A stretch of DNA of 64,000 nucleotides. It comes from Escherichia phage BAU.Micro_ELP-22. Positions 254 through 64,000 of this stretch are shown piece by piece (the first letter of the stretch is position 1; the number at the start of each line of letters is the position of its first letter). Location: the sequence record OR699282.2, one strand, 5' to 3'. The notes beneath the pieces were generated by a model. It had not been told where the DNA came from. It worked only from the letters and a program-made list of their open reading frames with translations, and did not search any database. The translations under genes were made by a program, and so were the position numbers.

Positions 254-664
254 ATGTTAGCTGATGAATTTATGTCACTAAGTATCAAGATATTTGATAT
301 ACTAGGTGATGAAACAGATTTCAATCTAAGCGACAAAGATATTCCATTGGAAGATGGTGGATACTTTTTTGCGATTGGAACTACGTATAATCTGGATCTT
401 TCAAAGCCTATCAGTGATGATAGTGATTATAATGCAACAACATATTTTGATTTCCAGCTTGATGGACATAAAGAGCGTTTACTAACGTACAGACGTAAAG
501 GTAGTTTCAATAGAACCGAGATTACAATAATGGATTTTGAAAAACGCATTGAACTAGCTAAGAAACATCCATTCATCAGTACTCATACATTTAATAGACT
601 AATCGATCTATTAGATAATTATCCATATACAATCCGAGGGTCGTTACGTTTAAATGCAGAATGA
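254..664 (+). CDS. hypothetical protein (136 aa)
   Basis: ORF in compact same-strand array; no motif recognised. Confidence 0.45.
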   Translation: MLADEFMSLSIKIFDILGDETDFNLSDKDIPLEDGGYFFAIGTTYNLDLSKPISDDSDYNATTYFDFQLDGHKERLLTYRRKGSFNRTEITIMDFEKRIELAKKHPFISTHTFNRLIDLLDNYPYTIRGSLRLNAE

Positions 665-839
665 AATCTTCAAAAAAGAATACGATGGTGAAAGTCTCTA
701 TGATATTCAAAGAGACGTACATGAAGCATTCGATTCAAGATTTAACCCATTAGCTGAACAAATCCCACAAGATGAGTTTGGTTTTCAGGAAGGCACTTTC
801 ACAGTGACTATTACATGGAGTCCAGATGAGACTAGCTAA
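654..839 (+). CDS. hypothetical protein (61 aa)
   Basis: ORF overlapping the upstream stop by 11 nt, typical phage coupling; no motif. Confidence 0.35.
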   Translation: MQNEIFKKEYDGESLYDIQRDVHEAFDSRFNPLAEQIPQDEFGFQEGTFTVTITWSPDETS

Positions 840-942
840 ACTTGTAATAGGTTGTAGTGCACTTGCTGCATATATGCTTTTTTCCGCACCAACCAATGTA
901 TTACTGTTAATTTGGGCAGTTGTTATATTAGCAGTACTTTAA
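826..942 (+). CDS. small hydrophobic protein (38 aa, one predicted TM helix)
   Basis: Own translation MRLAKLVIGCSALAAYMLFSAPTNVLLLIWAVVILAVL, below the ORF-track size cutoff; followed directly by a terminator hairpin. Confidence 0.25.
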   Translation: MRLAKLVIGCSALAAYMLFSAPTNVLLLIWAVVILAVL

Positions 943-969
943 AGCACCCTAGTGGTGCTTTTTCTATTT
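943..969 (+). terminator. intrinsic terminator (agcacc-ctagt-ggtgct + T-run)
   Basis: Perfect 6-bp inverted repeat followed by TTTTCTATTT. Confidence 0.5.
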
Positions 970-1101
970 GTGCAAATAAAAACCAATGTGACTTTTCCTT
1001 GATATAGGTCAAGAGAAATAACCTGTTCTGACGCTATAATGTTGTCTGGTGATATTAAATATCTTCACCCCCAGATGATTTCAAAATACAAGGAATGTAC
1101 A

Positions 1102-2907
1102 ATGCAATTAGATAAATTATATACTGACGTAACGAATTTCCTCAATCAGAGCAATACTGATCTTACCAACGAAAATGCGAACAAAGATGCGAAATGCGTC
1201 AATACACACAGGGATTTACTTGCAGGTATCCTATCTAAGCATTATTCACAAGATGTTATTCCAAATGAGCTAATGCAGTGGCATAATGATGGTTATGGTC
1301 ATATTCATGATTTAGACTACTATATCAGCCCATTAACCAACTGTTGCTTAGTTAACTACCCAGATATGCTAAAAAATGGATTTACCATTGGTTGTGCCAA
1401 AATTGAAGAACCAAAGAGTTTTAGTGTAGCATGTACAGTACTGACACAAATTGTTCAGGCTGTTGCTAGTTCCCAGTATGGTGGACAATCGTTGGCTCAT
1501 ATTGACGTTGGTCTTGAACCTTACGTTCAAAAGTCATGGGATAAGCTGTTAGAAAAACAAAAGAAATATAATCTAAGTGATGAATTCATTGAAGAAGAAC
1601 TACGAAAAGAAGTATACGATGGCTGTCAAACATTACTTTACCAAACTAATTCAATGATTAGTACTAATGGTCAAGCTGCATTTATTTCTCTTAGTTTAGG
1701 TCTTAATACTTCTAAATTTGGTAAATTAATTACTGAACAGTACTTAAAAGTTCATGAGAATGGTTTAGGTAAAGATAAGATTACTCCAGTGTTTCCTAAA
1801 GTTATTTTCTTTCTACAAGATGGTATAAACATGAATGCAAATGATAGCAATTATGACCTCAAACAGTTAGCTATGCGTTGTGCATCAAAAAGAATCTATC
1901 CAGATTTTGTTTCAGTACCATTAAATCACAAAGTGACTGGAAGTAGTAGTACTGCTGTAACACCGATGGGCTGTCGTTCATTCTTAGGAAAATGGGAAGA
2001 TTCAAATGGAAATGAACAATATAACGGTCGTTTCAATTTAGGCGTAGTTTCTATCAATTTACCTCTAATTGCTCTTGAGAGTGCTTCTGATGGAGAGTTT
2101 TTTGATAAGATAGACGAGCACATGAATATTGCATATCGTGCTCAGATGAACCGTGTGGAGCGTTTAAAAGGCACTAAAGCGAAGCAGAATCCAATTTTGT
2201 TCATGGAAGGTGCATTAGCACGTTTAGGTGCAGAAGAAACCATTGACAAGCTATTTTACAATGGTTATGCTAGTATTAGTATTGGTTATGTTGGTCTTGT
2301 TGAATGTTCAGAAATCCTCACTGGTTCTATCAGTAAGGAGTTTTGTATGTCAGTACTGAATTATATGAAAGTAAAATGTGATGAGTTCAAAAAAGAAAGT
2401 AATATTGCTTTTAGTCTATATGGAACTCCAGCAGAGTCGCTTTGTTATAAATTTGCACGTTGCATTGAAGCAAAATATCCTTCAGTACTAAAACGTGATT
2501 ACATCACAAATTCCTTCCATCAACCAGTATGGGTAGAAAGTTCTCCATTTGATAAATGGAGTTATGAAGAAGGGTTTGCTTACCTAAGTAACGGTGGAAA
2601 CATCAGTTATGTTGAATCTCCAAACTTAGCAAACAACATTCAAGCACTTGAAACATTAGTTAACTATGCGTACACTAAGATACCATATTTTGGTATTAAC
2701 CAACCAGTTGACCATTGTTATGAATGTGGCTTCCAGGGTGAGTTCAGTGTAGATAAACATGGTTTCCACTGTCCTGTATGTGATAATCGTAATGAGAAGA
2801 CAATCTCAGTGATTCGTCGTGTTTCTGGGTACTTGGGTAATCCTTCTTCGCGTGGCTTCAATAAAGGCAAGCAACAAGAGTGTTGTGAGCGTATTCAGCA
2901 CAAATAA
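1102..2907 (+). CDS. nrdD: anaerobic ribonucleoside-triphosphate reductase, class III (glycyl-radical enzyme)
   Basis: NENANKD, QRDLLAGI, PMGCRSF, CYECGF...CPVCD zinc site and C-terminal RRVSGYLGNP glycyl-radical motif, matching E. coli/T4 NrdD from memory. ORF track starts at 1039 overlapping a TATAAT; start moved to the Met at 1102, which has an AAGGA RBS 7 nt upstream. No ATP-cone, as in T4. Confidence 0.9.
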   Translation: MQLDKLYTDVTNFLNQSNTDLTNENANKDAKCVNTHRDLLAGILSKHYSQDVIPNELMQWHNDGYGHIHDLDYYISPLTNCCLVNYPDMLKNGFTIGCAKIEEPKSFSVACTVLTQIVQAVASSQYGGQSLAHIDVGLEPYVQKSWDKLLEKQKKYNLSDEFIEEELRKEVYDGCQTLLYQTNSMISTNGQAAFISLSLGLNTSKFGKLITEQYLKVHENGLGKDKITPVFPKVIFFLQDGINMNANDSNYDLKQLAMRCASKRIYPDFVSVPLNHKVTGSSSTAVTPMGCRSFLGKWEDSNGNEQYNGRFNLGVVSINLPLIALESASDGEFFDKIDEHMNIAYRAQMNRVERLKGTKAKQNPILFMEGALARLGAEETIDKLFYNGYASISIGYVGLVECSEILTGSISKEFCMSVLNYMKVKCDEFKKESNIAFSLYGTPAESLCYKFARCIEAKYPSVLKRDYITNSFHQPVWVESSPFDKWSYEEGFAYLSNGGNISYVESPNLANNIQALETLVNYAYTKIPYFGINQPVDHCYECGFQGEFSVDKHGFHCPVCDNRNEKTISVIRRVSGYLGNPSSRGFNKGKQQECCERIQHK

Positions 2908-2915
2908 GGTAAATT

Positions 2916-3248
2916 ATGGATTTAAAGCCAATTGTGGTTAACAAATACAAAGAACCGTATGATGTGTATATTGGACGTGGGTCTAAATGGGGAAACCCAT
3001 TTACCCATATTAAAGATAAACAAACCAAAGCCGAGTTCATTGTTAGTACAAGAGAAGAATCAATTGAAAAATTCAGAGAATACATTATTGAACGTATTTC
3101 TTGTGGAGAAGTTAAGATTGATGAATTACTTGAACTCGCAGGGAAACGCCTTGGTTGTTTCTGTAAACCAAAATCATGTCACGGCGATGTTCTTGTCGAA
3201 ATAGTGAGTGCAATATTAGATGAATTACCAGACGATAATCAAGGATGA
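2916..3248 (+). CDS. conserved small protein, DUF4326-like (YDVYIGRGSKWGNPF motif)
   Basis: Motif YDVYIGRGSKWGNPF...CFCKPKSCHGDVL recalled as DUF4326-type; sits between nrdD and nrdG; 3' end overlaps the nrdG start by 29 nt. Confidence 0.45.
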   Translation: MDLKPIVVNKYKEPYDVYIGRGSKWGNPFTHIKDKQTKAEFIVSTREESIEKFREYIIERISCGEVKIDELLELAGKRLGCFCKPKSCHGDVLVEIVSAILDELPDDNQG

Positions 3249-3690
3249 TTTAGTAAATGGAGAGGGCGTTCGCTGCTCTTTATTTGTTAGTGGGTGTTCG
3301 CACGGATGTGATGGTTGCTTCAATGAAGAAGCATGGGATTACAGAAGTGGTCAATTGTTCAGTACTGAAACAGTTGAGATTATACTACAGGAACTAAAAA
3401 AACCATATGTTAGTGGTTTGTCACTTCTAGGCGGCGATCCATTAATGAAAAAGAATATAGATGAAGTTTTAAATCTATGCAAAGTAGTTAAAGAAACTTA
3501 TCCTAGTAAAACTATTTGGTGCTGGAGTGGGTATACTTTAGATGAGATTATGAAAAATCATGCTAAAGATATACTTCAGTACTTAGATGTATTAGTTGAT
3601 GGTAAGTTTATTGAGTCCGAAAAGAATTTAAAATTACCTTTCCGTGGTTCAAATAATCAAAGAATACTATATAAAAATAAAGATTTTTAG
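3220..3690 (+). CDS. nrdG: anaerobic ribonucleotide reductase activating protein (radical SAM)
   Basis: N-terminus MNYQ...VNGEGVRCSLFVSGCSHGCDGCFN with a CxxxCxxC-type cluster; 156 aa, same length and N-terminus pattern as T4 NrdG from memory. Confidence 0.85.
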   Translation: MNYQTIIKDDLVNGEGVRCSLFVSGCSHGCDGCFNEEAWDYRSGQLFSTETVEIILQELKKPYVSGLSLLGGDPLMKKNIDEVLNLCKVVKETYPSKTIWCWSGYTLDEIMKNHAKDILQYLDVLVDGKFIESEKNLKLPFRGSNNQRILYKNKDF

Positions 3691-3694
3691 CATA

Positions 3695-3718
3695 AGCACC
3701 CGTTGGGTGCTTTTTTAT
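3695..3718 (+). terminator. intrinsic terminator (agcaccc-gtt-gggtgct + TTTTTT)
   Basis: 7-bp perfect stem plus T-run immediately after the nrdG stop. Confidence 0.6.
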
Positions 3719-3724
3719 TATGTA

Positions 3725-3732
3725 TATAAATA
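3725..3732 (+). promoter_or_regulatory. T4-type late promoter box TATAAATA
   Basis: Exact TATAAATA about 35 nt upstream of the first large structural gene (3767). Confidence 0.4.
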
Positions 3733-3766
3733 CATTAACTAATATCTAATTTATAAGGGATATATA

Positions 3767-6463
3767 ATGTCAAAGAAAATATATGGTGGCTTAGATGTCA
3801 CACATAATGTGACAGTTAATGGTAAAAGAACAATTCAAGGAATAAATGAACAAGTTTTTGATTCCAACGGTAACTTGGAATTAGATACTTATTCCAGAGA
3901 TGAAGTACTAGATATAGTAAGTATGATGCCAATCTCCCATTATGGTTCACAAAACTATCTACCTGCGGGTGTTTCTGGGGATTTCAATGGTGCATCAGAA
4001 AACCAGTCACAACGTAGAAATAAAATTTTATTAGAAAACGATGGTACACTAGTACTTTTACGTAGTGGGACAAACGGTAGTGTTGAGGGATTATTTTATT
4101 CATATTTGGCTAACGCATTATCAGTTGATGACATGAGCCGTACAATTAACACCAGTCGTCAATACAAGCCTGGGTTTTTTGGTTCAAATAGAGTTGCGAT
4201 TGGTTTATACAATACTGATCCAAATATTTTACTCGGTAGATATATTGATACTTCTAACAGTACTAATGGTTTGTTCATATCAATTACCAATGGTACATTA
4301 GATGATAAATTGCATACTGGTTTTTTCGTTAACCAAGCAGATATATCACCTGAAGGTGGTATTGAATATGCTATGATGGCAGAAGATGGTTCTATATATG
4401 TTTTTAACGTACTTAATGAAAATAACCAACTACAATTAGTTGTTGTTAAAGTTGTTTATAATATAAGCAATGGTACTTATACTGCAACTCGAATTACTGG
4501 ATGGACTACTAAAACATTTTATAACACAACTTATTCTGCACAAAATAATATGGTTATTACTAATCAGGTAACATCAACAAATATTGCTGATAAACCTTAT
4601 GTGTATGTTCCACAAAATCTACGTGGTATTGGGATTTACATGACATCAATTGATTTATATGTTGCACAGCAGCCAGGAACGCAGAATTTCCGCTTTAGAA
4701 TGAACGGGGACGCTTGGTTTACAATGGCAACATATAATACACGTCCACAGCATAGTTACAGTTTTGTGTTCAATATGAGTACTAAACAATGTACATTAGA
4801 TGCAGGTAACGATATTGGTTCATATCAAGCACCATTAGTTATAACTAATACTGGTTCGGCATTAGTTCCTACTGGTAACGTTTTAAATAACGATCCATTG
4901 TATAACCATGCAAATGCAAGAAACATTTATAGTTCATATTTTTATTTGAATTCTGGTGAAGCTTTTTGTACTGCATGTCCAAACTTAGCAGAACCATTAC
5001 TTATGCAAAAAGCTAAGTTTCCTATTCAAATAGTTTATAGTATGCTGAATGTCCGTGCTGTACTTTCTACTGACTTCAAAGGTGGTATAGTTCGCCCGTC
5101 TTTTGGTTCAGCGGTTGGTTCATTTATTAATGGTGTAGAATTACTACCAGATAACAGTACTAAACAATATTCACGTGCATCAGGTAGTGGTGGATTTAGA
5201 CCATCATATGCAGTTCATAAAAGTACTCCTAATTTTACATTTAAATCATTATCTTTAGGAACAATACAAGGTTATGAACCTACAGTTGAACGTGCTAATG
5301 TTGATGATAATGCAAATAATAGAATTTTTATTAGTAGTATTTCTGGGTCAACTGTCACAACCAATGGTGGTATTTTTATGGTTGGGCAACGTTATTCACA
5401 ATCATTATCCTATGATAAAAACTTAAATGGCACAGGAATTATAAGCGTTACACAATCAGTACTGGACAATTTTAGAAATACTGAATATGCCAAAGTTCTA
5501 AGTGATTGGAATTTATCAGCACAAGCATACCGTGATATGACACTATTTGTTCCACAACAAACAGACATTCCAGCTTTTGTTATGTTGAGTACAATTACTA
5601 ATGATTATAGAAACTATATTAGAATTGCTGAAGTTAATGTCAATACTAGAGTTGGTAATATTACATCTATTACATTTAAGCGTTTAGTACTTGAGAATAC
5701 GTATGGTGATAACTTTACACCAACTGGGAATGGTTCGATTGCATCTTCTTCTGTTGGTTTGACAATATATGATGGTGGTTCATTCTACTTCATTGGTGGT
5801 TCTGACCCATTATCACATCCAACAATAGGTAATACTGCAACTCATCAATTTAGAGCATATGTAACTAAATCAACTGCACAATTTACAAGTTTTATAATTA
5901 CTGGTTCTCATGCCAGTTATGAACAAGGAAGTCAACCAGCAGCATTACCTGGTATTGGTTTTGGAATTTTTGAACCAATTGATTACTCAAATAAAATGAC
6001 ATTCAAAAAATATGGAACAACGATTGCAGACTATAATAACTGGACTGCACAAGGTAGCCCAATTAACGTAGTATCCCAGGACGTTGCTCAAGGGTTTATT
6101 GTATATTTTACAGAGGAAACACCAGTTATTCTTTCAGGTAAGTCATTTTCACTACCAGTTTCAAATATTGATTTGAGAACTATTAAGTCTAATCCAGCAA
6201 ATACAACATTTTATGTATATGTTAAATTGGAACAAGGATTGGCAAACTATTACATAACTACTGATGTTATTTCTGAAACAGGAACAACTGCATATAATAT
6301 TTTTTGGATAGGTACAATTCAAACTAATGCAATTCAAATCGAAACAATTAATATACAAAAACGTTCCCGTTTAGATATATTTGGTGCTTCACTTGAATCA
6401 GCAGGTTCATCGTTCCCAGTTAGCTACGGTCTACCATCACAAACAGGAACCATAAACTGGTAA
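3767..6463 (+). CDS. large virion fibre/adhesin-like protein, paralog 1 (898 aa)
   Basis: Long Ser/Thr/Asn/Gly-rich ORF; shares an N-terminal motif (RDEVLDIVSMMPISHYG, LRSGTNGS) and a C-terminal module (VVSQDVAQGF...KSNPANTTFY...SSFPVS.G.PS.TGT..W) with 6475 and 7079. Confidence 0.6.
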   Translation: MSKKIYGGLDVTHNVTVNGKRTIQGINEQVFDSNGNLELDTYSRDEVLDIVSMMPISHYGSQNYLPAGVSGDFNGASENQSQRRNKILLENDGTLVLLRSGTNGSVEGLFYSYLANALSVDDMSRTINTSRQYKPGFFGSNRVAIGLYNTDPNILLGRYIDTSNSTNGLFISITNGTLDDKLHTGFFVNQADISPEGGIEYAMMAEDGSIYVFNVLNENNQLQLVVVKVVYNISNGTYTATRITGWTTKTFYNTTYSAQNNMVITNQVTSTNIADKPYVYVPQNLRGIGIYMTSIDLYVAQQPGTQNFRFRMNGDAWFTMATYNTRPQHSYSFVFNMSTKQCTLDAGNDIGSYQAPLVITNTGSALVPTGNVLNNDPLYNHANARNIYSSYFYLNSGEAFCTACPNLAEPLLMQKAKFPIQIVYSMLNVRAVLSTDFKGGIVRPSFGSAVGSFINGVELLPDNSTKQYSRASGSGGFRPSYAVHKSTPNFTFKSLSLGTIQGYEPTVERANVDDNANNRIFISSISGSTVTTNGGIFMVGQRYSQSLSYDKNLNGTGIISVTQSVLDNFRNTEYAKVLSDWNLSAQAYRDMTLFVPQQTDIPAFVMLSTITNDYRNYIRIAEVNVNTRVGNITSITFKRLVLENTYGDNFTPTGNGSIASSSVGLTIYDGGSFYFIGGSDPLSHPTIGNTATHQFRAYVTKSTAQFTSFIITGSHASYEQGSQPAALPGIGFGIFEPIDYSNKMTFKKYGTTIADYNNWTAQGSPINVVSQDVAQGFIVYFTEETPVILSGKSFSLPVSNIDLRTIKSNPANTTFYVYVKLEQGLANYYITTDVISETGTTAYNIFWIGTIQTNAIQIETINIQKRSRLDIFGASLESAGSSFPVSYGLPSQTGTINW

Positions 6464-53943: not shown

Positions 53944-55680
53944 TTAAACTACAGAAACTCCACTCATTGAAGGTGGAACGATTTGTTCAGCAATTAATAA
54001 TAAATTAGTTACTGTAAACTTACCACCATGTGACATTAACGTAATAGGTGTTCCATTAGTTACTAGGTTACCATTTTCATCAACACTTAAAAATGTATTA
54101 AATGAAATAGTATCAACCGTGATAGTTGGTGTTCTAACTTGATTGATATTATTAAATTGAGTATTTGTAAAATTAATAGCAAAACTCATATTAGACGAAC
54201 TAGTAGTCCATGTACCGTATATATTTAATTTGAAATTTAGAGAGGAATTGAAATTATAAACATTTAACTTATTACTTGTTGTATTGAAGAAACTATCTAG
54301 TGTTCCACTAGTGGGTGTGAATGATTTAAGTATTTGAATTAAATTTTGTTCAATTCCATCAGTGAATTGTATATTTAAGTTTGAATAATATAATTCTCTT
54401 TTTCGACGAATTAGGTTAGTAGTATTATTACCATTAACAAATAATCCAGTACTATCTGATGTTAATATATTACCAGAGGTATTACTGATTTTAGATGAAA
54501 TTACATTAGCGTCAATAGATATACCATTTCCCGCAGTATATGAGGATGGCCCAGATGGAACATACAACCCATTTACGTCAGTTGTTAACGTATTTCCTGG
54601 CGTTGTGCTTATTTTAGTTGAAATTGTTTCAGAACTAATAGATATACCAGTACCACCAACGTAATTTATTCTTGTATTAGGTACAAATAATCCAGTACTG
54701 TCAGTAGATAGTATATTACCAGAAGTAGAACTAATTTTAGTACTGATTACTTCACCACTGATAGAAACACCGGAACCAGCACTATAAGATACTGAATTAT
54801 CAGGCACAAATAAACCATTACTTGTAGAAGATAGTATGTTTTCTGATGTCGGGTCAACCTTCACACTTATTACATCATCACTAATTGAAATTCCATTTCC
54901 TCCATTATAAGTAATTGAGCTATTAGGTACGAATAATCCATTAATATCTGATGTTAGTATATTACCAACAGTAGAACTAATTTTAGTACTTATTTGGTCA
55001 TCACTAATAGTAATGCCAGTACCAGCATTATAAGTTATCGAATTATCCGGCACGAATAGACCAGTACTATCAGTTGTAAGGATATTTCCTAAAGATGTGC
55101 TTATTTTTGATGATATAATATTATTATCTATTTTAATACTTTCACTACCTGTATATGTTACGGTATTATCAGGTACATATAAACCATCTTCGGCAATCGT
55201 GAGGATGTTACTAGGTGATGTACTGATTTTAGTTGAGATAGTATTATCACTTATTGATACACCCGTGCCACCAGAATACACAATTGAGGTATTAGGTACA
55301 TATAAACCATTAGCATCAGATATCAGAATATTTCCAGAATTTAAACTCACTTTAGCAGATATAACATTTGTATTAACATCTATACCATTTCCAGCTACAT
55401 AACTTACAGTATTATCAGGAACATACAAACCATTAGAATCATTACTAAGAATATTGCCTTGTGTTGAACTTATTTTTGTGGATATTAAATTAGAAGATAT
55501 TGATATACCAGTTCCACCTTGATAGTTAATAGTATTATCTGGAACATATAAACCATCACTTTCATGAATTAAAATATTTTTATTTTTAGTACTAATATCA
55601 GGCACTGGTATCTTGCCTATTAGTTCGCCGTCATAACTGATATCACCATTTACAATAATATCTGTTCTTATATTATACAT
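53944..55680 (-). CDS. tail fibre protein built from about 12 tandem 33-aa repeats
   Basis: Repeats of the form GNILT.DSTGLFVPDNS.TY.AGTGI.IS...ISTKIS.T.; start moved to ATG (55680) with AGGAAA RBS (ORF track used TTG at 55704). Confidence 0.6.
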   Translation of the reverse strand: MYNIRTDIIVNGDISYDGELIGKIPVPDISTKNKNILIHESDGLYVPDNTINYQGGTGISISSNLISTKISSTQGNILSNDSNGLYVPDNTVSYVAGNGIDVNTNVISAKVSLNSGNILISDANGLYVPNTSIVYSGGTGVSISDNTISTKISTSPSNILTIAEDGLYVPDNTVTYTGSESIKIDNNIISSKISTSLGNILTTDSTGLFVPDNSITYNAGTGITISDDQISTKISSTVGNILTSDINGLFVPNSSITYNGGNGISISDDVISVKVDPTSENILSSTSNGLFVPDNSVSYSAGSGVSISGEVISTKISSTSGNILSTDSTGLFVPNTRINYVGGTGISISSETISTKISTTPGNTLTTDVNGLYVPSGPSSYTAGNGISIDANVISSKISNTSGNILTSDSTGLFVNGNNTTNLIRRKRELYYSNLNIQFTDGIEQNLIQILKSFTPTSGTLDSFFNTTSNKLNVYNFNSSLNFKLNIYGTWTTSSSNMSFAINFTNTQFNNINQVRTPTITVDTISFNTFLSVDENGNLVTNGTPITLMSHGGKFTVTNLLLIAEQIVPPSMSGVSVV

Positions 55681-55702
55681 ATATTTTTCCTTATAATGAA
55701 AC

Positions 55703-55729
55703 AAAAAAAGGTCAACTATTGTTGACCTT
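55703..55729 (-). terminator. intrinsic terminator on minus strand
   Basis: Minus-strand hairpin aaggtcaac-aatag-ttgacctt followed by TTTTTTT after the 55736 gene. Confidence 0.55.
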
Positions 55730-55735
55730 TATTAA

Positions 55736-56515
55736 TTAACGTATACGTTCAGGAATATCAATACCTTCATATACCCAAATTGCAGCTTGTTGTGCTTTAT
55801 AAATTGCATCAGGATCTAAATCATCAACCGCATCAATTGCAGAACACTGTTTATCACATTCGGTAAACAATTGCTCAATCATTGCAAATGCTTCAGTATA
55901 TAGTTGTGTCATTTCAGCAGCAGATAATTTAACAATTGCATCATCAAGAAAAATAGAAACACTTTCAGAGCCTGAAGTGACTTGTGTATAATAATTAAGA
56001 AGCATTTGACGACCAGACATATCAGTACTGTAACGATGACCATTGAACATATAACCAGAATTCATACGATTTGTACGTTCTGATATAGTTCTTGCTTTTA
56101 AATCAGCTTTAACATCTGCTATTGGCATATCAATATAATGATATGTTTTAAGAACAGTTAGTGCTTTATATTCTTCGGTAGCGTCTTCTAAAAATTCAAC
56201 AATAGGTTGATTTTCATCTTTTAATTTAATAAACTCCAACGGTTGTTCAATAGCATTAACATTTCCAACATTTTTATACACTAACCACCAAAAACCTTCT
56301 TCTTTTCTAACAGCATCATTAGGTTCTACTGGGGAACCATCTTTACTTGAAATACCATAAAGAGTTCTAATATCACTATAAAGATAACGATAGGTTTGTG
56401 GATCTTCTGGTGTTGCACCAGGACGTTCTTTAAGTCCTTTTACACCAATTGGATTGGAAATAATGTTTCCCAATTCATAATTTTCTTTTGAATTTCCTTT
56501 CACATATGTGAACAT
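55736..56515 (-). CDS. hypothetical protein (259 aa), possible fibre assembly/chaperone by position
   Basis: ORF immediately downstream of the giant fibre gene; no motif. Confidence 0.45.
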   Translation of the reverse strand: MFTYVKGNSKENYELGNIISNPIGVKGLKERPGATPEDPQTYRYLYSDIRTLYGISSKDGSPVEPNDAVRKEEGFWWLVYKNVGNVNAIEQPLEFIKLKDENQPIVEFLEDATEEYKALTVLKTYHYIDMPIADVKADLKARTISERTNRMNSGYMFNGHRYSTDMSGRQMLLNYYTQVTSGSESVSIFLDDAIVKLSAAEMTQLYTEAFAMIEQLFTECDKQCSAIDAVDDLDPDAIYKAQQAAIWVYEGIDIPERIR

Positions 56516-56579
56516 ATAACTACCTCACTTGTTATGATGGTGTCACCCAAAATGAGTGACACCTTTATTATTATAATTA

Positions 56580-59500
56580 TTAAGCTGTACGTTGTGCAAT
56601 AAACATATCTGCTACTGGACTCACACCGTCATAAATGACTTGGTAAATGGTCACACTACCAGCAGTTTTGTTTAGAGTTCCATCAACAACCGCATAAGTA
56701 CCGTCAGTAGTAAAGTTTCTATTACCTGTTGCATCTTGTTTTACATAAATGTATACTGAAGATGCTTTACCACCACCAATTAGACCAGTGATTGGTGCTA
56801 GAGTTGTATCTTGATCTAGAGTGATAAAGTATACGTTGCTAGTACCGTCTGGGGTCCAAGTACCAGTTGGTGCGATAACAGAAGAAGTTACTTGATTAGG
56901 AATAACATCATATTTTTTAGTAGTTACTGTTGTAGTAGTTAGGTCAGCATTAGTAGTTGTTAATTGACCAGTTACAGTTACATCTTTATCAAATACCGCA
57001 TTTTCTTTGAAAGAAGATGTTGCATTGACAGTTAATGTATCAGCAGCAGCGTCACCTAAAACAACACTACCATTTGCAGTCATTAAACCAGTAACAGTTA
57101 AAGTACCACCGATGGTTGCTGCTCCAGTAACAGATGCACTAGCAAGTGTTGCTGCACCAGAAGTAGTAATGGTAGTTACTGAAGTTGCTGCTAGGGTTGC
57201 AGTACCTGTTGCAGAAATATCACCACCAACAGTTAGGTTACCAGAAGTAATTCCAACGGTTCCAGTAATGTTAGCACCACTTGACATTGTTACTGCACCA
57301 CCAAATGAACCAGTAGTAGTTACTTCAAGGGTGTTCCCTTTTAGTAGACCAGTTGCAGTAATACTTGTACCTGCGGTAATGCTAGTACCAGCAGCAACAC
57401 TGTTGGTTGCAGTTAATGATTTAACAGCTACATCAGAGTTTGCTTGGTTTAGTGTTGCGTTTAGAAGACCAGTTACTGTAAAGTTACCGTTGTTAACTAC
57501 GTTACCATTGATTGTTAAGTTGTTGTTTTGTGAACCAACATCACCAATAGTTGCTGATTTGGAAATCAACTCTGCACCAGAAGTAATGTTACCCGCTGCA
57601 CTAATAGTGTCAGCCGCAACAACTGCATAAGGTTCAATTGTTTGACCACTAACGTCAATATCAGCGTTGATACCACCATCTACACGCAAGGAGCCTGCAA
57701 TGTAAGTATTAGGGAAAATCTGAACTGTCTCTGGTTGATCACCAATTTTAGTACCAATAATAACATCAGAACCAGTTTTAACTGCACCAGAGGTTGTTAG
57801 AGAACCTAAAGTTGTAGCACCAGTTACGCCTAATGTTCCACCAATTGTTGCGTTATTGGTAACTGCTAATGCAGCACCTTCACCATTAAGAGCGATTGAT
57901 GGAGCAGATACTGCACCAGTTACGCCTAATGTTCCACCAATTGTTGCGTTGCCATCTGAATGTAGAGTTGTAGCTACAGAAAGACTGTTAGCAACTACAT
58001 CAGTACTAGCTAAATCCAATGCACCTGGGGTTAATGTACCAGTAATGTTAACATTATTACCAAAGGTTGCTGCACCAGTCACATCTAGTGTAGTACTAAA
58101 TGTACCAGAGGTTGCAGAGATTGCACCTGAATCTAGTGATCCAACAGTTGCTTTACCAGTTACACCTAAAGTTCCACCAACAGTTCCATTTGTGGTTACA
58201 TCCAATGTACCAGTACTTAGTTCTTGTGCGGTTACCTTACCGGATGCAGTAACAGTTGAAGTGGAAACGCCACCAGTTAGAGTACTAGCACCAGTAACAC
58301 TTAATGTGGTTGCAGCAGTTACGCTATTTACGCTAAGATCAGCACCGGATAAGTCCAAACCACCTTCAGGAACAAATACACCCTTAACAGTTAGTTTTTG
58401 TACTGTACTATCACCTGTTACATCCAAGGTAGAAGCAGTTAAACCACCATTCATACTTGCTGCACCAGTAACACCTAGTGTAGTGGTTACAGTAGCACTA
58501 TTAAGTGTTGAACTACCAGAAATATTAGCACTAGGAGCAGTAATAGTTCCAGAATCAACTTGTATACCACCTGCAACAACCTGAATTCCACCAGCATTAA
58601 CTGTTAGTTTACCAGCAGTATTCAATGTATTTGAAACTGTTGTTGCACCAGTTAAAGTTGTAGTACCAGTTACACCTAAGTTACCAGAAATAGATGGACT
58701 ACCTGTAATATTACCAGTAGTTAGTATCAAATCAGTACCTACGGTAGTGGAGCCAGTACTTTCTAGTGTTACACCAACGATGTTTGCAGAACTTAGGTTA
58801 ATAGTACCATCAACAGTTAAGTTACCTTGAACGGTTGCATCACCTAGAGAAGTTAATGTCTTCACAGACACATCAGTTGTGCTAAGATCAATAACACCCG
58901 CAGTTAGTGTTCCAGATACTGCTAAATTACCAGTAATCGCGGTATTTTTAGTAATGGATACATTTTCTGCCGCTGAAGTAATAGAACCAACAGTAAGTAC
59001 ACCACCAACAGTTGCGTTATTAGTTACATTTAGAGCAGTTCCAACACCAGATAGTGTTGCTGACCCACCAGTAATTGCACCTGAGATTGAAGCTGTTGCT
59101 GCTGAAACATCACCAGAAACTACTGCATTTGTTGCATTTAGAGCAGACACTGTTACTTCAGTACTTTGAACTTTAGGTAGAACGTTGATACCTTCTGCAC
59201 TACTAACTGTAATAATACCAGTACTTGTTATAGATTTAACAGATACATCAGCACCACTTAAATCAACTGTACCAGAAACAACAAGATCTCCACCAATATT
59301 TGCTCCAGCGGTAGTAGTAATGGATTTTGCACTTACATCAGTTGTGCTCAAATCAATTGCACCTGGTGTTACTGTACCAGAAACTGTTAGGTCACCAGTA
59401 ATAGATGTATTATTGGAAATAGATACACCATCAACGTTACTAATTGTTGGGGTTTCTACAGAAACTGCTTTAACTTTACCTGAAGAAGTTACGTCAGCTA

Positions 59501-62105
59501 CGGTAGATGCACCAGTAACATTCAAATTAGTAATATTTGCAGTTGTTGAACCAAGGGTTGCAATAGTTGCATCAGTACTTTGAAGTTTAGGTAGAACACT
59601 ACTAATTGTGGATTCATTACTAACAATTGCACCAGTACTAGTTAAAGATTTGACAGTAACATCAGCCGTAGTAAGATCTACTGTACCATTAACAGTTAGG
59701 TTACCACCAATAGTTGCACCAGCAGTAGTAGTAATGGATTTAGCATTAACATCAGTTGTTGCTAGATCGATAGAGCCTGGAATAACTGCACCAGTAACGG
59801 TTAGGTCACCAGTTACATTTGTATTATTGGAAATAGTGACACCACTTGCATTTGAAATGGTTGGGGTAACCAACGATGCAGTTGTAGTTTCACCAGTTAC
59901 AGTTAAAGTTGACCCAACTAGAACAGATGAGCTTGAGTAAATTGTACCCAAATTAGCAGATCCGGAAACAGTTATATCATCAGCATTAACAGTAGTTGCC
60001 GTTATGGTAGTACTATTAAGTACTGGAAGTACGTTAGCATTAACAAGATCATTACTTTTAACAATACCAGAAGTAGTTAATGATTTAACATTAAGGTCGG
60101 CTGCTGATAAATCAAAAGAGCCTTGAACTACTAAATCACCACCAATAGTTGCACCAGCAGTAGTAGTGATTGATTTAGCATTAATATCGGTAGTGCTCAA
60201 GTCTAGAGAACCAACAGTTAAGCTACCAGTAATATCAACATTTTCTGTAAAGTTAGTATTACCACTAATAGTTGGTGCAGTCAGAGTTGTTGCACTAATA
60301 TTAGTACCGTTAATTGTTTGCCCACTTACAGTTCCACTCGCAGTGATAGTAGGAGCCGTTACTTCAGTAGATGCACTAATTGTTGGTGCAGATACAGAAG
60401 TTGTACCAGTAATAGAACCAGAACTTACTGAACCAGCGGATAATGCACCAGAAAGAGTTGCAGTTGTACCAGCAATATCACCAGTAACAGTTAGTTTAGC
60501 ACCCACGGTAGTGTTACCAGTACTTTCAAGTGTTGCACCTTTAATATTTGCTGCCGCGACAACAGAATTAGGTGTTAGATCCTGACCACTAACATCAACA
60601 GTTAGTCCAGTTACTGTTCCAGTAAATTCAACATCATTAAGAATTGCTTTACCACCAACTTGTAGGAATGGTGTACCTGGAGCTTGTGTTTCGTTACCAG
60701 TAATAGTTAGGTAATCTAGTTTGTTTAGACCGTTACCAGTAATACCATAAGTGGAAAGAGAAGCGTTACCGAAAGTTGCTGTTTTAAGAACGTTCAATGT
60801 AGAAGGAGAAACAACTTCTGATTGAACTTCGTTAGGTAGAATAACTGTTGGGCGTTGACCTGGTGCAGTATATCCAAAACCTAGTTTCACTGCCGCATCT
60901 TGACTATTTTGACCTAAGCTGATAGCTTTAAAGGATGCAGTACTGTTATAACCAGTAATATTAGAACCAAGAGTAACACCACCAACTAATGAAGTTACAC
61001 CAGTAACGTTCAAAGATACTGCATTGATATCGTCTAGTTGGAACGTTCCACCAAGAAGTCCAGAAACATTAATGTTATTAAAATTAGCAGTACCAGTACT
61101 TTCGATATTTGGAATAGTTGCAGTTCCGGTTACTTCAAAGTCCGCAACTTTAGTTTTGCCTTTTTGAACTTCTAATAGTGGTGTGTCTGGTGATTGTGTA
61201 TTGTTACCAGAAACTGTTAGATAATCTAATTTGTTTAGACCATTACCAGTAATACCATAAGAAGATAATGACGCATTACCAAAAGAAGCAGAGGTCAATA
61301 CTGTCAAGTTTGCAGGTGACATTAGCTCGGACTGAATTTCGTTTTGTAGAATAACAGTTGGGCGTTTACCAGGAGCAGTGTAAGGGAAGCTTAATCTGAA
61401 GGTTTGTGATTCAGAGTTAGAACCAATACGAATGTCTTTAAAAGTAGCAGTACTGTTAATACCAGTTACGTTAGCACCGAAAGTTACTGCACCTTGTTGG
61501 TTAGATGCACCAGTAACGTTCAATGTTACTGCATTTAAGTCAGATAGATTAAACTCACCACCAAGTGTACCACTAATTGTCACATCTTTAAATGTAGCAG
61601 TACCAGTACTACTAATATCTGTTGTACTTACATTAGTAATTTCTGCGGTATTAGCAGTAATTTTATCAAATGCAGCAGTAGTCCCAACATCAGCAGTAAT
61701 ATTACCTTTAAATGCTGTTGTTTCAGCAACTTCTAAGTTTTTAACTTTAGTTGCTTGTAGAGTGGTTGTACCAGCAGTTTGTGTAAAATCAGAACCAACT
61801 GATACAGTACCGTTAAAGGTAGCGTTTGAATTAATTGTTGCTGTATCAGACCCGACAACTGCACTACCGATTGTAGTATTACCCTCAACACCAAGACCAC
61901 CAGAAAGTGTTGCTTTGCCACCTACATCTAAAGTAGATGTAATATTGGCAGTTGATGATTCAATGGCAGTAAAAGTTGCATTTGCAAAAGTTACAGTACC
62001 ATTTACAGTTAGGTTATTATTGAAAACAGCATTTCCTTTGACTAAAAGATCCTTACCAACCGTACCAGCACCAGTAATATCTAAGTCAGTTTTTATTGAG
62101 TACAT
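56580..62105 (-). CDS. giant repeat-rich tail fibre / adhesin (1841 aa)
   Basis: Continuous minus-strand ORF, extremely Thr/Gly/Ser/Val/Asn-rich; ATG with GGAGGG RBS; two about 180-aa tandem repeats and four or more about 140-aa repeats (TTDVNAKSITTTAGATIGGDLVV.G..DLS.ADLNVKSLT.SG). Confidence 0.7.
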   Translation of the reverse strand: MYSIKTDLDITGAGTVGKDLLVKGNAVFNNNLTVNGTVTFANATFTAIESSTANITSTLDVGGKATLSGGLGVEGNTTIGSAVVGSDTATINSNATFNGTVSVGSDFTQTAGTTTLQATKVKNLEVAETTAFKGNITADVGTTAAFDKITANTAEITNVSTTDISSTGTATFKDVTISGTLGGEFNLSDLNAVTLNVTGASNQQGAVTFGANVTGINSTATFKDIRIGSNSESQTFRLSFPYTAPGKRPTVILQNEIQSELMSPANLTVLTSASFGNASLSSYGITGNGLNKLDYLTVSGNNTQSPDTPLLEVQKGKTKVADFEVTGTATIPNIESTGTANFNNINVSGLLGGTFQLDDINAVSLNVTGVTSLVGGVTLGSNITGYNSTASFKAISLGQNSQDAAVKLGFGYTAPGQRPTVILPNEVQSEVVSPSTLNVLKTATFGNASLSTYGITGNGLNKLDYLTITGNETQAPGTPFLQVGGKAILNDVEFTGTVTGLTVDVSGQDLTPNSVVAAANIKGATLESTGNTTVGAKLTVTGDIAGTTATLSGALSAGSVSSGSITGTTSVSAPTISASTEVTAPTITASGTVSGQTINGTNISATTLTAPTISGNTNFTENVDITGSLTVGSLDLSTTDINAKSITTTAGATIGGDLVVQGSFDLSAADLNVKSLTTSGIVKSNDLVNANVLPVLNSTTITATTVNADDITVSGSANLGTIYSSSSVLVGSTLTVTGETTTASLVTPTISNASGVTISNNTNVTGDLTVTGAVIPGSIDLATTDVNAKSITTTAGATIGGNLTVNGTVDLTTADVTVKSLTSTGAIVSNESTISSVLPKLQSTDATIATLGSTTANITNLNVTGASTVADVTSSGKVKAVSVETPTISNVDGVSISNNTSITGDLTVSGTVTPGAIDLSTTDVSAKSITTTAGANIGGDLVVSGTVDLSGADVSVKSITSTGIITVSSAEGINVLPKVQSTEVTVSALNATNAVVSGDVSAATASISGAITGGSATLSGVGTALNVTNNATVGGVLTVGSITSAAENVSITKNTAITGNLAVSGTLTAGVIDLSTTDVSVKTLTSLGDATVQGNLTVDGTINLSSANIVGVTLESTGSTTVGTDLILTTGNITGSPSISGNLGVTGTTTLTGATTVSNTLNTAGKLTVNAGGIQVVAGGIQVDSGTITAPSANISGSSTLNSATVTTTLGVTGAASMNGGLTASTLDVTGDSTVQKLTVKGVFVPEGGLDLSGADLSVNSVTAATTLSVTGASTLTGGVSTSTVTASGKVTAQELSTGTLDVTTNGTVGGTLGVTGKATVGSLDSGAISATSGTFSTTLDVTGAATFGNNVNITGTLTPGALDLASTDVVANSLSVATTLHSDGNATIGGTLGVTGAVSAPSIALNGEGAALAVTNNATIGGTLGVTGATTLGSLTTSGAVKTGSDVIIGTKIGDQPETVQIFPNTYIAGSLRVDGGINADIDVSGQTIEPYAVVAADTISAAGNITSGAELISKSATIGDVGSQNNNLTINGNVVNNGNFTVTGLLNATLNQANSDVAVKSLTATNSVAAGTSITAGTSITATGLLKGNTLEVTTTGSFGGAVTMSSGANITGTVGITSGNLTVGGDISATGTATLAATSVTTITTSGAATLASASVTGAATIGGTLTVTGLMTANGSVVLGDAAADTLTVNATSSFKENAVFDKDVTVTGQLTTTNADLTTTTVTTKKYDVIPNQVTSSVIAPTGTWTPDGTSNVYFITLDQDTTLAPITGLIGGGKASSVYIYVKQDATGNRNFTTDGTYAVVDGTLNKTAGSVTIYQVIYDGVSPVADMFIAQRTA
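57817..57950. repeat. 38-bp exact direct repeat pair inside the giant fibre gene
   Basis: gcaccagttacgcctaatgttccaccaattgttgcgtt at about 57817-57854 and 57913-57950. Confidence 0.6.
58780..60300. repeat. four or more tandem copies of an about 420-bp coding repeat unit
   Basis: Recurring acatcagttgtgct(c/a)a(a/g)atc...accagtaat... blocks at about 58.85, 59.3, 59.7 and 60.15 kb. Confidence 0.5.
60640..61720. repeat. two tandem about 540-bp coding repeats (about 75-80% identical by eye)
   Basis: Blocks beginning at about 60640 and 61180 share long collinear stretches (ttgtttagacc(g/a)ttaccagtaataccataag...gttgggcgtt...). Confidence 0.55.
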
Positions 62106-62202
62106 TTATACCCTCCATTATAACCTTGTTAATATGTATATATTTAGTTTTATTATGCTGTTATCCAACAATTAATATGTTATTTGACAAAAGCAAATAT
62201 AA

Positions 62203-62236
62203 TAAAAAACCAGACTTATTTAGAACAAGTCTGGTT
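62203..62236 (-). terminator. intrinsic terminator on minus strand
   Basis: 10-bp perfect stem aaccagactt/aagtctggtt with T-runs on both strands, after the 62244 gene. Confidence 0.6.
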
Positions 62237-63156: not shown

Positions 63157-64000
63157 TTATGGTAGGGTTATGTAAGTTACGGGTTGGGCAGCTTTTAATG
63201 CTGCACCAGCGGCAGTTGCTGTTATGATAGGATCTGCAATATCAATTCTATATACGTTGTTTACAACATACACTGCACGAGTTATATACGTTCTCAAATC
63301 ACCACCATTTTCACCAGCACCGGATATAATGATCTCAGTACCAGCAGCTTTTGCATATTGGTTTTCACCCCATGACACACCCAATGCTTCTATGTATGTT
63401 TGTCCTACTACCGTTTGTCTAATTGTGTCATATTTTCCGAAAAAAGAACCACCAACAGTTACAATATATTTTCCACCCGATTGTTTATGAATAATCGTGC
63501 CTTCAGAGAAATAGCGTCCCCCAGGAAAAGTATCGTATGGAATATAATATTGCTCAACTACAGGTATCAGTACTGGGCCACGGTGACCTGTACCATCGAT
63601 TGCAGTTGTAACTTTAAAGTTATTAGATGATTGGTCTATTCTGTCTACATACATTTTAGAAAAACTATATTTTGAAACATTACAATCATCTTGAACAACA
63701 CAGTTAGTCCAATTAGTATAAGTATATTTAGAGCGAGTATAGATACCACCACCTTCGCCTTCGGTAGAGAGGTGTTGACCAATTACATCTAATTCTTTAG
63801 TTCTAATATCACTAAATTTAGATGATGATGGCAAACCACGCCAAAGGATTTTAGAACAGGTGATATTGCTCAATTCTGTATTATTTAACCAATTATCAGA
63901 ACCGGAAGTATAAACAAGTATAGAAGACTCTGGAATATAGAGATTAGAAATTTTAAAGTTTCTAGGTGGTCCAGCAAAACGACCAGAAGTTACACCCCAG
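63157..64000 (-). CDS. structural protein, 5'-partial (runs off the window end)
   Basis: Minus-strand frame is open from 63157 to the window edge; the ORF-track start at 63873 is an internal TTG. Confidence 0.45.
   Translation of the reverse strand, partial: WGVTSGRFAGPPRNFKISNLYIPESSILVYTSGSDNWLNNTELSNITCSKILWRGLPSSSKFSDIRTKELDVIGQHLSTEGEGGGIYTRSKYTYTNWTNCVVQDDCNVSKYSFSKMYVDRIDQSSNNFKVTTAIDGTGHRGPVLIPVVEQYYIPYDTFPGGRYFSEGTIIHKQSGGKYIVTVGGSFFGKYDTIRQTVVGQTYIEALGVSWGENQYAKAAGTEIIISGAGENGGDLRTYITRAVYVVNNVYRIDIADPIITATAAGAALKAAQPVTYITLP

Follow-up and report, generated by a model that had tools for sequence, protein, structure and literature searches.

A probable giant modular fibre of an Asteriusvirus with a phiTE-type distal end and a shaft that varies by whole repeat modules

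A gene on the minus strand of the Escherichia phage BAU.Micro_ELP-22 genome (sequence record OR699282.2) very probably encodes the giant virion fibre of 121Q/phAPEC6/PBECO4-type Asteriusvirus phages, a protein with a modular shaft and a phiTE-type distal end in which the number of modules would change by unequal crossover. Within the window, which is the 64,000-nucleotide stretch of DNA that was analysed, positions 56580..62105 of the minus strand form a single ATG-initiated open reading frame of 1841 codons plus stop, with a calculated product mass of 180.3 kDa. Its orthologues are 121Q gp571, phAPEC6 gp256 and PSLUR01_00469 of slurp01. The DNA is 99.4% identical to slurp01 and 98.9% to both 121Q and phAPEC6, the full-length identity to 11 Asteriusvirus records is 98.8-99.4%, and the protein shares 99.6% of its residues with 121Q gp571. 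At E <= 1e-10 there are 24 homologues, most of them on contigs of tens to hundreds of kb and several on contigs of about 350 kb. The PHROG 4549 profile "tail fiber protein" matches with an E value of 2.8e-226 (754.6 bits), and ESI-MS/MS of the virion proteome detected phAPEC6 gp256, which is listed as a tail fiber protein of 180.38 kDa, by 15 unique peptides (PMC7247149). Together with the profile matches to the phiTE long tail fibre described below, these data bear out an earlier note on this DNA, which had called the gene a fibre gene from the letters alone. The gene is already known: it has been deposited and labelled tail fibre and its product has been seen in phAPEC6 virions, so little in it is new in kind.

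Repeat modules were defined by BLASTP self-comparison of the protein in 100-residue windows, by HMM mapping and by DNA comparison. Self-BLASTP of the whole protein gave the diagonal alone, and the 100-residue windows were used in its place. The same limitation applies to a tblastn search of the window with the fibre protein, which returned the self-match alone and may have let a weak paralogue escape. Family A, on the minus strand like all modules, has two units of 170 residues (510 bp) at aa 155-494, or 60624-61643. Both A1 (aa 155-324, 61134..61643, HMM score 328) and A2 (aa 325-494, 60624..61133, found by self-BLASTP and HMM) are seen in the self-comparison, and A2 is homologous to phiTE residues ~180-352. 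The two are 58% identical in protein overall (55-67% over the self-BLASTP windows, at an offset of 169-170 residues) and 64-66% identical in DNA. Two tandem units of about 540 bp had been proposed at 60640-61720; their number stands, while their length and borders are replaced by those given here. A linker segment of the shaft (aa 495-605, 60291..60623), which carries the DVSGQDLTPNSV motif, aligns with phiTE residues 305-446 and gives a weak match to the C-type HMM. It is followed by family B at 58611..60290, with four units of 145, 138, 155 and 122 residues (435, 414, 465 and 366 bp; HMM scores 120-196). Their limits are aa 606-750 (B1), 751-888 (B2), 889-1043 (B3) and 1044-1165 (B4), with self-BLASTP offsets of 145, 138 and 155 residues, and each contains an internal sub-repeat of about 30-35 residues. 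These four units correspond to the "four or more" units of about 420 bp noticed before. Family C comprises two units of about 112 residues at aa 1229-1453 (57747..58421), C1 at aa 1229-1341 and C2 at aa 1342-1453, which are 51% identical in protein. This third repeat family was absent from the earlier note. The HMMs of families B and C cross-match each other's units.

The repeat units within the gene are 57-71% identical in DNA, against 34.6 ± 3.0% (maximum 43%) for random in-frame 420-nt segment pairs taken from the same gene. Residue autocorrelation, compared with 200 shuffles, peaks at lag 170 (z = 8.6), with further signals at lags 155, 145 and 138 (z = 4-5). The description of the repeats as nested is also upheld by the autocorrelation, which gives lags of 30 and 35 residues in the B region (z 5.5 and 4.5) and of 6 and 11-12 residues outside it (z 2.6-4.2). 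The longest exact repeat, a 38-bp pair already placed at 57817-57950, was located as two copies at 57817-57854 and 57913-57950 (minus strand, offset 96 bp). It lies inside C2, and each copy encodes NATIGGTLGVTGA. An exact 30-bp pair is present at 59703-59732 and 60138-60167, with an offset of 435 bp. The two match places per record that appear in the DNA search most likely reflect these internal repeats. Thr, Gly, Ser, Val and Asn account for 59% of the residues, and for 69% when Ala is added. To say that the protein consists almost entirely of the first five was an overstatement. Charged and aromatic residues are more frequent in the A units and in the C-terminal 116 residues, neither of which resembles simple repeats.

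The modules lie between two ends of very different distribution. The N-terminal region (aa 1-154, 61644..62105, minus strand) has no phiTE counterpart and occurs only in Rak2-like jumbo phages; tblastn with aa 1-330 found 58 records only, and all those listed are jumbo phages of ~337-386 kb. It gave no significant match in the PDB and is presumably the virion-attachment end. The distal shaft (aa 1454-1725, 56931..57746, minus strand) is conserved in the family, 70-100% identical even in divergent orthologues, and homologous to phiTE residues ~456-680. The protein ends in a C-terminal globular domain (aa 1726-1841, 56583..56930, minus strand), predicted to be a beta-rich tip. Among the eight orthologues compared this is the most conserved part of the fibre: seven of them keep it at 94-99%, some with shaft modules that are just 20-60% identical. 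Phage records with this domain number 309, rV5-like Vequintavirinae among them. A Foldseek search of the tip model against BFVD matched many phage fibre proteins, one of them named for a C-terminal fibre domain; against the PDB nothing was found at E <= 0.001, the best match being the tailspike of Acinetobacter phage Solidus (E 0.4). A tip that is 94-99% conserved and common to phages of many hosts is unusual for a receptor-binding tip that determines host range.

The sole PDB match of the fibre is the phiTE long tail fibre (PDB 9CUY chain g; phmmer E 2.4e-29). A profile of the A units matches residues 180-352 of this chain (E 3.6e-45), and a profile of the distal 390 residues matches residues 456-793 (E 1.6e-49). 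The matches start at about residue 180; phiTE residues 1 to ~175 gave no alignment with the fibre. The phiTE fibre is a baseplate-attached trimer of which residues 14-171 were modelled from density, and the rest is predicted to be an extended beta-helix of 512 Å (PMC11972413). The evidence for a trimer in phiTE covers the N-terminal part only (PMC11972413). The parts of the phiTE fibre that align with the protein studied here lie outside the experimentally resolved density (PMC11972413). The phiTE anchor and the N-terminal region are unrelated, so the mode of attachment found in phiTE is not transferable.

These comparisons give a probable architecture. An N-terminus of about 150 residues specific for jumbo phages is followed by a shaft of two A units, the linker, four B units and two C units, and this by a distal section of about 390 residues. 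The shaft is rich in Thr, Gly, Ser, Val, Ala and Asn, and the distal section ends in the predicted beta-rich tip of ~116 residues. A beta-helix-type fold of the shaft is plausible. By analogy, the fibre most likely forms a beta-rich homotrimer with a length of roughly 100-120 nm, and its conserved tip would most likely be positioned far from the virion and contact the host surface or accessory virion proteins. AlphaFold2 monomer models were poor for the shaft and the A module (mean pLDDT 49 and 65); the model of A2 with the linker and B1 was unusable, with a mean pLDDT of 49 and 28-45 for the A unit. In the C-terminal section roughly the final 100 residues reached a pLDDT of 85-94, and the prediction was confident nowhere else. 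The fibre protein matched no family of Pfam or NCBIfam above threshold. Pfam bactofilin (PF04519) scored 18.2 bits, below its gathering cut-off of 27.9, and no YadA family was found at E <= 0.01 in the Pfam search, although some records name homologues "YadA domain protein" or "autotransporter". A precomputed assignment to PF26209 is present on 22 of the 24 homologues; no mention of this family was found in the literature.

Another position on the virion has to be considered. Instead of a baseplate fibre, the protein could form the hairs or whiskers of about 120 nm that stud the tail sheath and possibly also the capsid in phages of the phAPEC6, fEgEco12 and CBB type; we consider this unlikely. 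The genes for the hairs are left unassigned in the literature (PMC5259590, PMC7247149), and homologues of the fibre are present in CBB, phAPEC6 and fEgEco12, all of which are described as hairy. The baseplate of phAPEC6 is described as bearing six short fibres, and the virion as having further "hairy" fibres that are unassigned; gp256 was named there just as an in-silico fibre candidate (PMC7247149). The dimensions would be consistent with hairs: those of CBB measure 119 ± 10 nm (PMC5259590), and scaling of the predicted phiTE fibre (793 residues, 51 nm) to 1841 residues gives ~119 nm, whereas the baseplate fibres are short in CBB (~29 nm, PMC5259590) and in phAPEC6 (PMC7247149). However, the figure of ~119 nm comes from crude scaling of a model that is itself a prediction, and the nearest characterised relative, the phiTE fibre, is attached to the baseplate (PMC11972413). 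GAP32 also has a homologue, yet no hairiness is reported for this phage and the CBB authors expected the hair genes to be absent from it (PMC5259590). The phAPEC6 hairs moreover occur at three rings of the sheath and on the capsid (PMC7247149), which would need several attachment sites. The literature on fEgEco12, JP4 and Erwinia jumbo phages and a 2026 review of jumbo phages hold nothing specific on the fibre gene or the identity of the hairs. The fibre nevertheless qualifies as a testable candidate for these unexplained tail hairs. If it does form them, gain and loss of whole A and C modules would tune hair length, and the hairy-myovirus phenotype would obtain both a gene and a length-setting mechanism.

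The name under which the gene is often deposited implies yet another arrangement, that of a T4 gp34-type proximal half-fibre whose C-terminus carries connectors and a separate distal half-fibre. We judge this improbable. Records of 121Q, SP27, UB, ph0011, BF17, fEgEco12, CBB, GAP32 and others carry the label "long tail fiber proximal subunit", virion structural genes follow directly downstream, and a highly conserved C-terminal domain would fit a protein-protein joint. BLASTP, however, gave best E values of 1.7 against T4 gp34 and 0.13 against gp37, the Pfam and NCBIfam searches had no gp34-type match, and the C-terminal domain is the one that also terminates the 793-residue chain of phiTE and further phage fibre proteins. 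The gene downstream of the fibre shows no similarity to T4 gp35 (E 7.7). It lies at 55736..56515 on the minus strand and encodes 259 residues with a DUF4376 domain (Pfam PF14301, E 4e-9; PHROG 17968, E 8e-94), and its 121Q orthologue, gp570, carries the annotation of a virion structural protein. Neighbours resembling gp35, gp36 or gp37 were not found next to the fibre gene, the downstream domains being DUF4376 and Sf6-knob domains. From its adjacency, the gp570-like protein is a possible partner of the fibre. The proximal-subunit label is thus unsupported by the sequences, in which no basis for it could be detected, and appears inherited rather than tested; the fibre is in fact related to the long tail fibre of the phiTE/rV5 type.

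The surroundings of the gene are those of virion genes. It sits between gp570-like and gp572-like virion genes, beside the gene of a colanic-acid-degrading protein. The latter belongs, with genes for a tail protein and for a protein with a knob domain, to the cluster of minus-strand virion and host-recognition genes in which the fibre gene lies. The gene order around the fibre is kept in 121Q, UB, JP4, ph0011, UE-S1 and slurp01. Behind the preceding gene, the upstream intergenic region (62106..62236, minus strand) has a predicted hairpin resembling a terminator at 62208-62236, and a putative ribosome-binding site, GGAGGG, is located 5 nt ahead of the fibre ATG.

Comparison of the gene among related isolates, proposed earlier as a check, supports a shaft of variable length. 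Alleles of 1827, 1834, 1841, 1959 and 2129 residues were found among the isolates, and the large differences equal exactly one A unit (170 residues) and one C unit (112 residues). Over the 24 homologues (1049-2120 residues) there are 1-3 A units, about 3-4 B units and about 1-3 C units. The fibres of UB, JP4 and PBECO4 are 112 residues longer and have three C modules. JP4 has a further 170 residues, a third A unit at A2, and its middle A unit is A2-type to about nt 360 of the unit and A1-type from there on. The extra C unit of UB, JP4 and PBECO4 is also chimeric; it starts as C2-type and ends as C1-type, with the junction at a GGTLGV(T/I)G motif, and in UB it is 90% identical to its neighbour. 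GGTLGVTG/GGTLGVIG is part of the peptide motif encoded by the 38-bp pair. The third A units of JP4, P0002 and P0011 have independent origins. Such chimeric junctions are typical of unequal crossover. Unequal homologous recombination between short stretches conserved within the modules probably shifts module number over evolutionary time, the outcome being length alleles that differ by whole modules. The expectation that the gene is recombination-prone and may vary in length is therefore well founded, with five allele lengths, whole-module differences and extra units that are chimeras of their neighbours. A link between long alleles and host was considered and dropped; O157 hosts are found both for the alleles with an additional C unit (UB, JP4, PBECO4) and for the 1841-residue allele (E9.1).

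Mis-assembly can befall tandem coding repeats, and the repeat structure or the lengths could then be an artefact of collapsed or expanded repeats. We hold this to be very improbable. The units are too diverged to pose a serious assembly hazard, with at most 71% DNA identity (57-71%) and a longest exact run of 38 bp, far under read length. The same allele lengths turn up in separate assemblies: exactly 5526 bp in eleven independent records at 98.8-99.4% identity, and 6390 bp in JP4 and CRJP21. The reading frame is also intact, and its product is 99.6% identical to that of 121Q.

The plus strand of the fibre gene contains open reading frames of 96-247 residues. Counted as stop-free stretches, seven antisense frames of at least 100 residues are present, nearly all in one frame and the longest of 281 residues. 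Shuffles of codon order gave 5.4 ± 1.3 such frames and a maximum of 222 ± 59 residues. Read in the minus-strand frame, the substitutions relative to four orthologues fall mostly at third codon positions; the counts against ph0011, for instance, are 170/98/501. The long plus-strand frames are a product of the codon composition of the fibre gene, and the earlier description of them as spurious was correct. That they are real genes, as in the PBECO4 RefSeq record where three of them are annotated as hypothetical proteins (gp549-gp551), is scarcely credible in view of the third-position bias, the frame lengths reproduced by shuffling and the detection of the minus-strand product by mass spectrometry in phAPEC6 (PMC7247149). 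The PBECO4 mis-call arose because that record is linearised inside the fibre gene, and the antisense frames have already misled at least one RefSeq annotation.

Copy-number variation of diverged tandem modules is ordinary phage-fibre biology. The module map and the evidence for unequal crossover nevertheless provide a rational basis for the engineering of fibre length, and the map aids the reading of allele differences among therapeutic Asteriusvirus isolates.

The fibre can be compared with several known systems. The 121Q, phAPEC6 and slurp01 fibres are encoded by the same 5526-bp gene with the same neighbours and differ by point differences only; a 586-aa knob-domain gene two genes downstream is present in the window but not in 121Q, slurp01 or phAPEC6. 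The likeness to T4 gp34 is a functional analogy only, both being very long, beta-rich, repeat-containing fibres of contractile-tailed phages. Repeats of bactofilin or YadA-type beta-solenoids and trimeric autotransporters are like the fibre in composition and in their short beta-strand periodicity. The nearest structurally characterised relative is the fibre of the Pectobacterium phage phiTE, a vequintavirus (9CUY/9MJN chain g, 793 residues), which shares the A-type module, the distal section and the tip, the last of these also present in rV5, PVP-SE1, phAPEC8 and others. Both fibres have recurring D-L/V-x-G-x-D-I-x-P-x-S-V motifs. The phiTE fibre has a helical-bundle N-terminal anchor, which is missing here, and one A module instead of two; no matches to the B and C series were detected in its chain, and the Asteriusvirus protein is 2.3 times as long. 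The Asteriusvirus fibre could accordingly be described as a fibre of the phiTE type with a different anchor, in which duplication of modules would have extended the shaft ~2.3-fold.

A single ORF with an ATG start occupies 56580-62105 on the minus strand and encodes an 1841-aa protein (calculated mass 180.3 kDa, pI 4.2), with a putative GGAGGG ribosome-binding site 5' of the start codon. The region is 99.4% identical to slurp01 and 98.9% to 121Q, phAPEC6, G17, Sharanji and others, which are Asteriusvirus jumbo myophages of about 350 kb, and the gene is 121Q gp571 and phAPEC6 gp256. It also matches PHROG 4549 (tail fiber) at E 2.8e-226. The gene is thus already known, both annotated and detected by proteomics as a phage fibre: the virion proteomics that the earlier note had asked for exists for the near-identical phAPEC6 gp256, listed among the virion proteins as a "tail fiber protein" of 180.38 kDa and identified by 15 unique peptides (PMC7247149). 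A terminator-like hairpin (62208-62236, minus strand; 13-bp stem, then a T-run) lies upstream of the fibre cistron and closes the preceding gene, and a second hairpin, GGTGTCAC...GTGACACC (56540-56570, minus strand), directly follows the fibre stop codon without a long T-run.

The same-strand neighbours are host-recognition and virion genes. A 259-aa DUF4376 protein (55736-56515, minus strand), which the 121Q record calls a virion structural protein, adjoins the fibre downstream and may be its tip partner or assembly factor; it additionally gives weak matches to the tail-fibre families phrog_10508 and phrog_2837. Between the gp569-like and gp570-like genes lies a 586-aa ORF (53944-55704, minus strand, listed with a TTG start); an Sf6-type tail-needle knob domain (PF16532, E 3.6e-27; phrog_1030) forms its C-terminal part. 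Similar DNA (87% query coverage) is present in PBECO4, CRJP21 and UB, while 121Q, slurp01, phAPEC6, SP27, Sharanji and others match no more than the initial ~80 bp of the interval, and the gene looks like a variable accessory-fibre cassette. Further minus-strand neighbours encode a virion structural protein, a colanic-acid-degrading protein and a tail protein. The ORF at the window edge (63157-63873, minus strand) aligns with positions 471-709, towards the C-terminal end, of the profile of the colanic-acid-degradation family PHROG 6117, in parallel with 121Q gp573, and by this profile match is probably a depolymerase-type tailspike that starts beyond the window.

A precise module map of the giant fibre, new here, was built from windowed self-BLASTP, residue autocorrelation, unit alignments and HMM mapping. 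The N-terminal region (aa 1-154) is followed by the tandem units A1 (aa 155-324) and A2 (aa 325-494), each of 510 bp, and by a linker (aa 495-605). Four B units come next, B1 (aa 606-750, 435 bp), B2 (aa 751-888, 414 bp), B3 (aa 889-1043, 465 bp) and B4 (aa 1044-1165, 366 bp), then a spacer (aa 1166-1228), C1 (aa 1229-1341) and C2 (aa 1342-1453) of ~336 bp each, a distal shaft (aa 1454-1725) and the C-terminal domain (aa 1726-1841; window 56583-56930). DNA identity between paralogous units is 57-71%, against 34.6 +/- 3.0% (maximum 43%) for random in-frame 420-nt segment pairs from the same gene, which shows that the off-diagonal structure is genuine rather than an effect of composition. B and C modules have the core motif ITGxLTVxGxxxPGxIDLSxTDVxxKSLT...GGxLxVxG in common. 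The repeats are nested, as the earlier note had proposed, with prominent autocorrelation lags of 30 and 35 residues in the B region and of 6 and 11-12 elsewhere. That note's observation holds and its interpretation is supported, with minor corrections. Its A and B arrays are real, as is the 38-bp exact pair, located as stated there at 57817-57854 and 57913-57950, but the A units are 510 rather than ~540 bp and family C had been overlooked; a 30-bp exact pair also connects B1 with B2. Thr, Gly, Ser, Val and Asn, proposed to form almost the entire protein, account for 59% of its residues (69% including Ala), and neither the A units nor the C-terminal domain are of low complexity.

AlphaFold2 was run on monomers with alignments of 13 sequences. 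Only the last ~100 residues gave a confident model, which is beta-rich (pLDDT 85-94). Its predicted fold had no significant match in the PDB, but in BFVD it matched many phage fibre proteins, including the phiTE fibre, collagen-repeat fibres and a protein whose name refers to a C-terminal fibre domain. Monomer modelling is often poor for obligate oligomers, but the alignment was shallow as well, and the poor quality of the A2-linker-B1 model (mean pLDDT 49) therefore proves nothing. Composition, periodicity and homology to phiTE would be consistent with a trimeric beta-helix.

In all but one of the eight orthologues compared, identity in the C-terminal tip domain is 94-99%, and these seven include some with no more than 20-60% identity in the shaft (B, C) modules. 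Such a mosaic suggests either exchange of the tip or strong constraint on it. Because the tip is so conserved and is common to phages of many hosts, it fits a conserved ligand or an accessory-protein docking site better than a fast-evolving specificity determinant.

The giant fibre is most likely a homotrimeric, beta-rich protein of three functional parts, in which the jumbo-phage-specific N-terminus would anchor it to the virion, the modular shaft would act as a spacer whose module number sets the length, and the conserved distal section would display the tip domain. Scaling from the 51 nm predicted for the 793 residues of phiTE, the fibre could be ~100-120 nm long. At low probability, it could instead be the tail "hair" of phages such as CBB, phAPEC6 and fEgEco12, to which no gene product has been assigned in the literature (PMC5259590, PMC7247149). 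For CBB, a hair length of 119 +/- 10 nm and baseplate fibres of only ~29 nm have been reported, yet GAP32 has a homologue of the giant fibre and hairs were not reported for it (PMC5259590).

Length variation between isolates, which had been anticipated, is borne out by intact alleles of 1827 aa (UE-S1), 1834 aa (ph0011), 1841 aa (121Q; identical 5526-bp length in 11 records), 1959 aa (UB) and 2129 aa (JP4; equal span in CRJP21). In global alignments the large differences correspond to entire modules: JP4 carries 170 aa more in the A array and 112 aa more in the C array, and UB and PBECO4 have 112 aa more. The middle A unit of JP4 is a chimera, of A2 type for approximately the first 360 nt and then of A1 type. 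The extra C unit of UB starts as C2 and ends as C1, with the junction at a GGTLGV(T/I)G motif that is part of the peptide encoded by the 38-bp exact pair of the window. Unequal crossover between tandem units classically yields such a unit, with the front of its downstream and the back of its upstream neighbour. At the sequence level, we regard these chimeric units as direct evidence, new here, that the length alleles arise via unequal crossover. The 24 homologues (1049-2120 aa, E <= 1e-10) follow the pattern of an N-terminal region, 1-3 A, ~3-4 B and ~1-3 C units and a distal section, with a C-terminal domain resembling that of the window in 13. The metagenomic homologues P0002, P0011 and P0012 likewise have a third A unit. 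The parentage of these units differs (in P0002 A1 and A2 are 81% identical, in P0011 A3 is like A2), so there were several gains or losses. PF26209 is precomputed on 22 of the 24, and P0024 additionally has PF26208. In the fEgEco12 and BF17 lineages the whole gene is tandemly duplicated (~1906 aa and 1638-1644 aa); the C-terminal domain of the copy adjoining the gp572-like gene is 54% identical to that of the window, that of the other copy 94%. TH47 has one gene only, of 1652 aa.

Within Asteriusvirus, positional orthologues (69-78% identity) are more similar than paralogues (56-62%), and by this comparison the units in the window's allele are old and diverged. The patches usable for recombination within it are short, 19-38 bp only. 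For these two reasons the description as recombination-prone applies over evolutionary time and does not show that the gene is unstable in culture. These reasons also make collapse of the array in assembly unlikely, and the same length in 11 independent assemblies also argues against it.

The plus-strand ORFs, suspected to be spurious, are indeed by-products of codon composition, since codon-order shuffles match the observed runs. In one antisense frame, stretches of 281, 240 and 220 aa are free of stops, compared to a longest run of 222 +/- 59 aa after shuffling, and seven runs of >= 100 aa were observed versus 5.4 +/- 1.3. Counted by codon position (1/2/3) in the minus-strand frame, substitutions number 170/98/501 (against ph0011), 211/122/611 (UE-S1), 7/2/54 (121Q) and 55/27/270 (UB); in these sequence comparisons the third-position excess marks that frame as being under purifying selection. 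Antisense ORFs have already misled annotation: in the PBECO4 RefSeq record (NC_027364), 317-4993 corresponds to window ~57000-62175 and is annotated with three plus-strand ORFs, gp549-551, and the fibre is omitted. The fibre ORF runs past the end of that record because it was linearised inside the gene, and the separated C-terminal piece is UniProt L7TJS0, a 515-aa "YadA domain protein".

Many records label the giant fibre gene "long tail fiber proximal subunit", as T4 gp34 is called. A gp34-like identity was rejected, as the best BLASTP E-values were 1.7 (gp34) and 0.13 (gp37) and the downstream gene is unrelated to gp35. Searches of the fibre against NCBIfam gave no match, and against Pfam only bactofilin, below threshold. 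Among proteins of solved structure the only relative is the long tail fibre of Pectobacterium phage phiTE (793 aa; PDB 9CUY/9MJN, chain g), whose residues 180-352 are matched by the A-unit profile (E 3.6e-45) and residues 456-793 by a profile of the distal 390 aa (E 1.6e-49). The phiTE fibre is a trimer attached to the baseplate wedge, and its model in density covers no more than residues 14-171, the remainder being predicted as an extended beta-helix of 512 Å (PMC11972413). Its N-terminal anchor is without counterpart in the giant fibre. The N-terminal region and A1 are confined to 58 records, those listed being all Rak2-like jumbo phages of Escherichia, Salmonella, Yersinia, Erwinia, Serratia, Pectobacterium (CBB), Cronobacter (GAP32), Xanthomonas and Klebsiella aerogenes, with RaK2 absent among them, whereas the C-terminal domain is found in 309 phage records, including rV5, PVP-SE1 and phAPEC8. 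From the phiTE homologies and the unlike distributions of the two ends, the giant fibre reads as a long tail fibre of the phiTE/rV5 type, a corrected family assignment that is new here, with a different anchor and a shaft expanded through module duplication.
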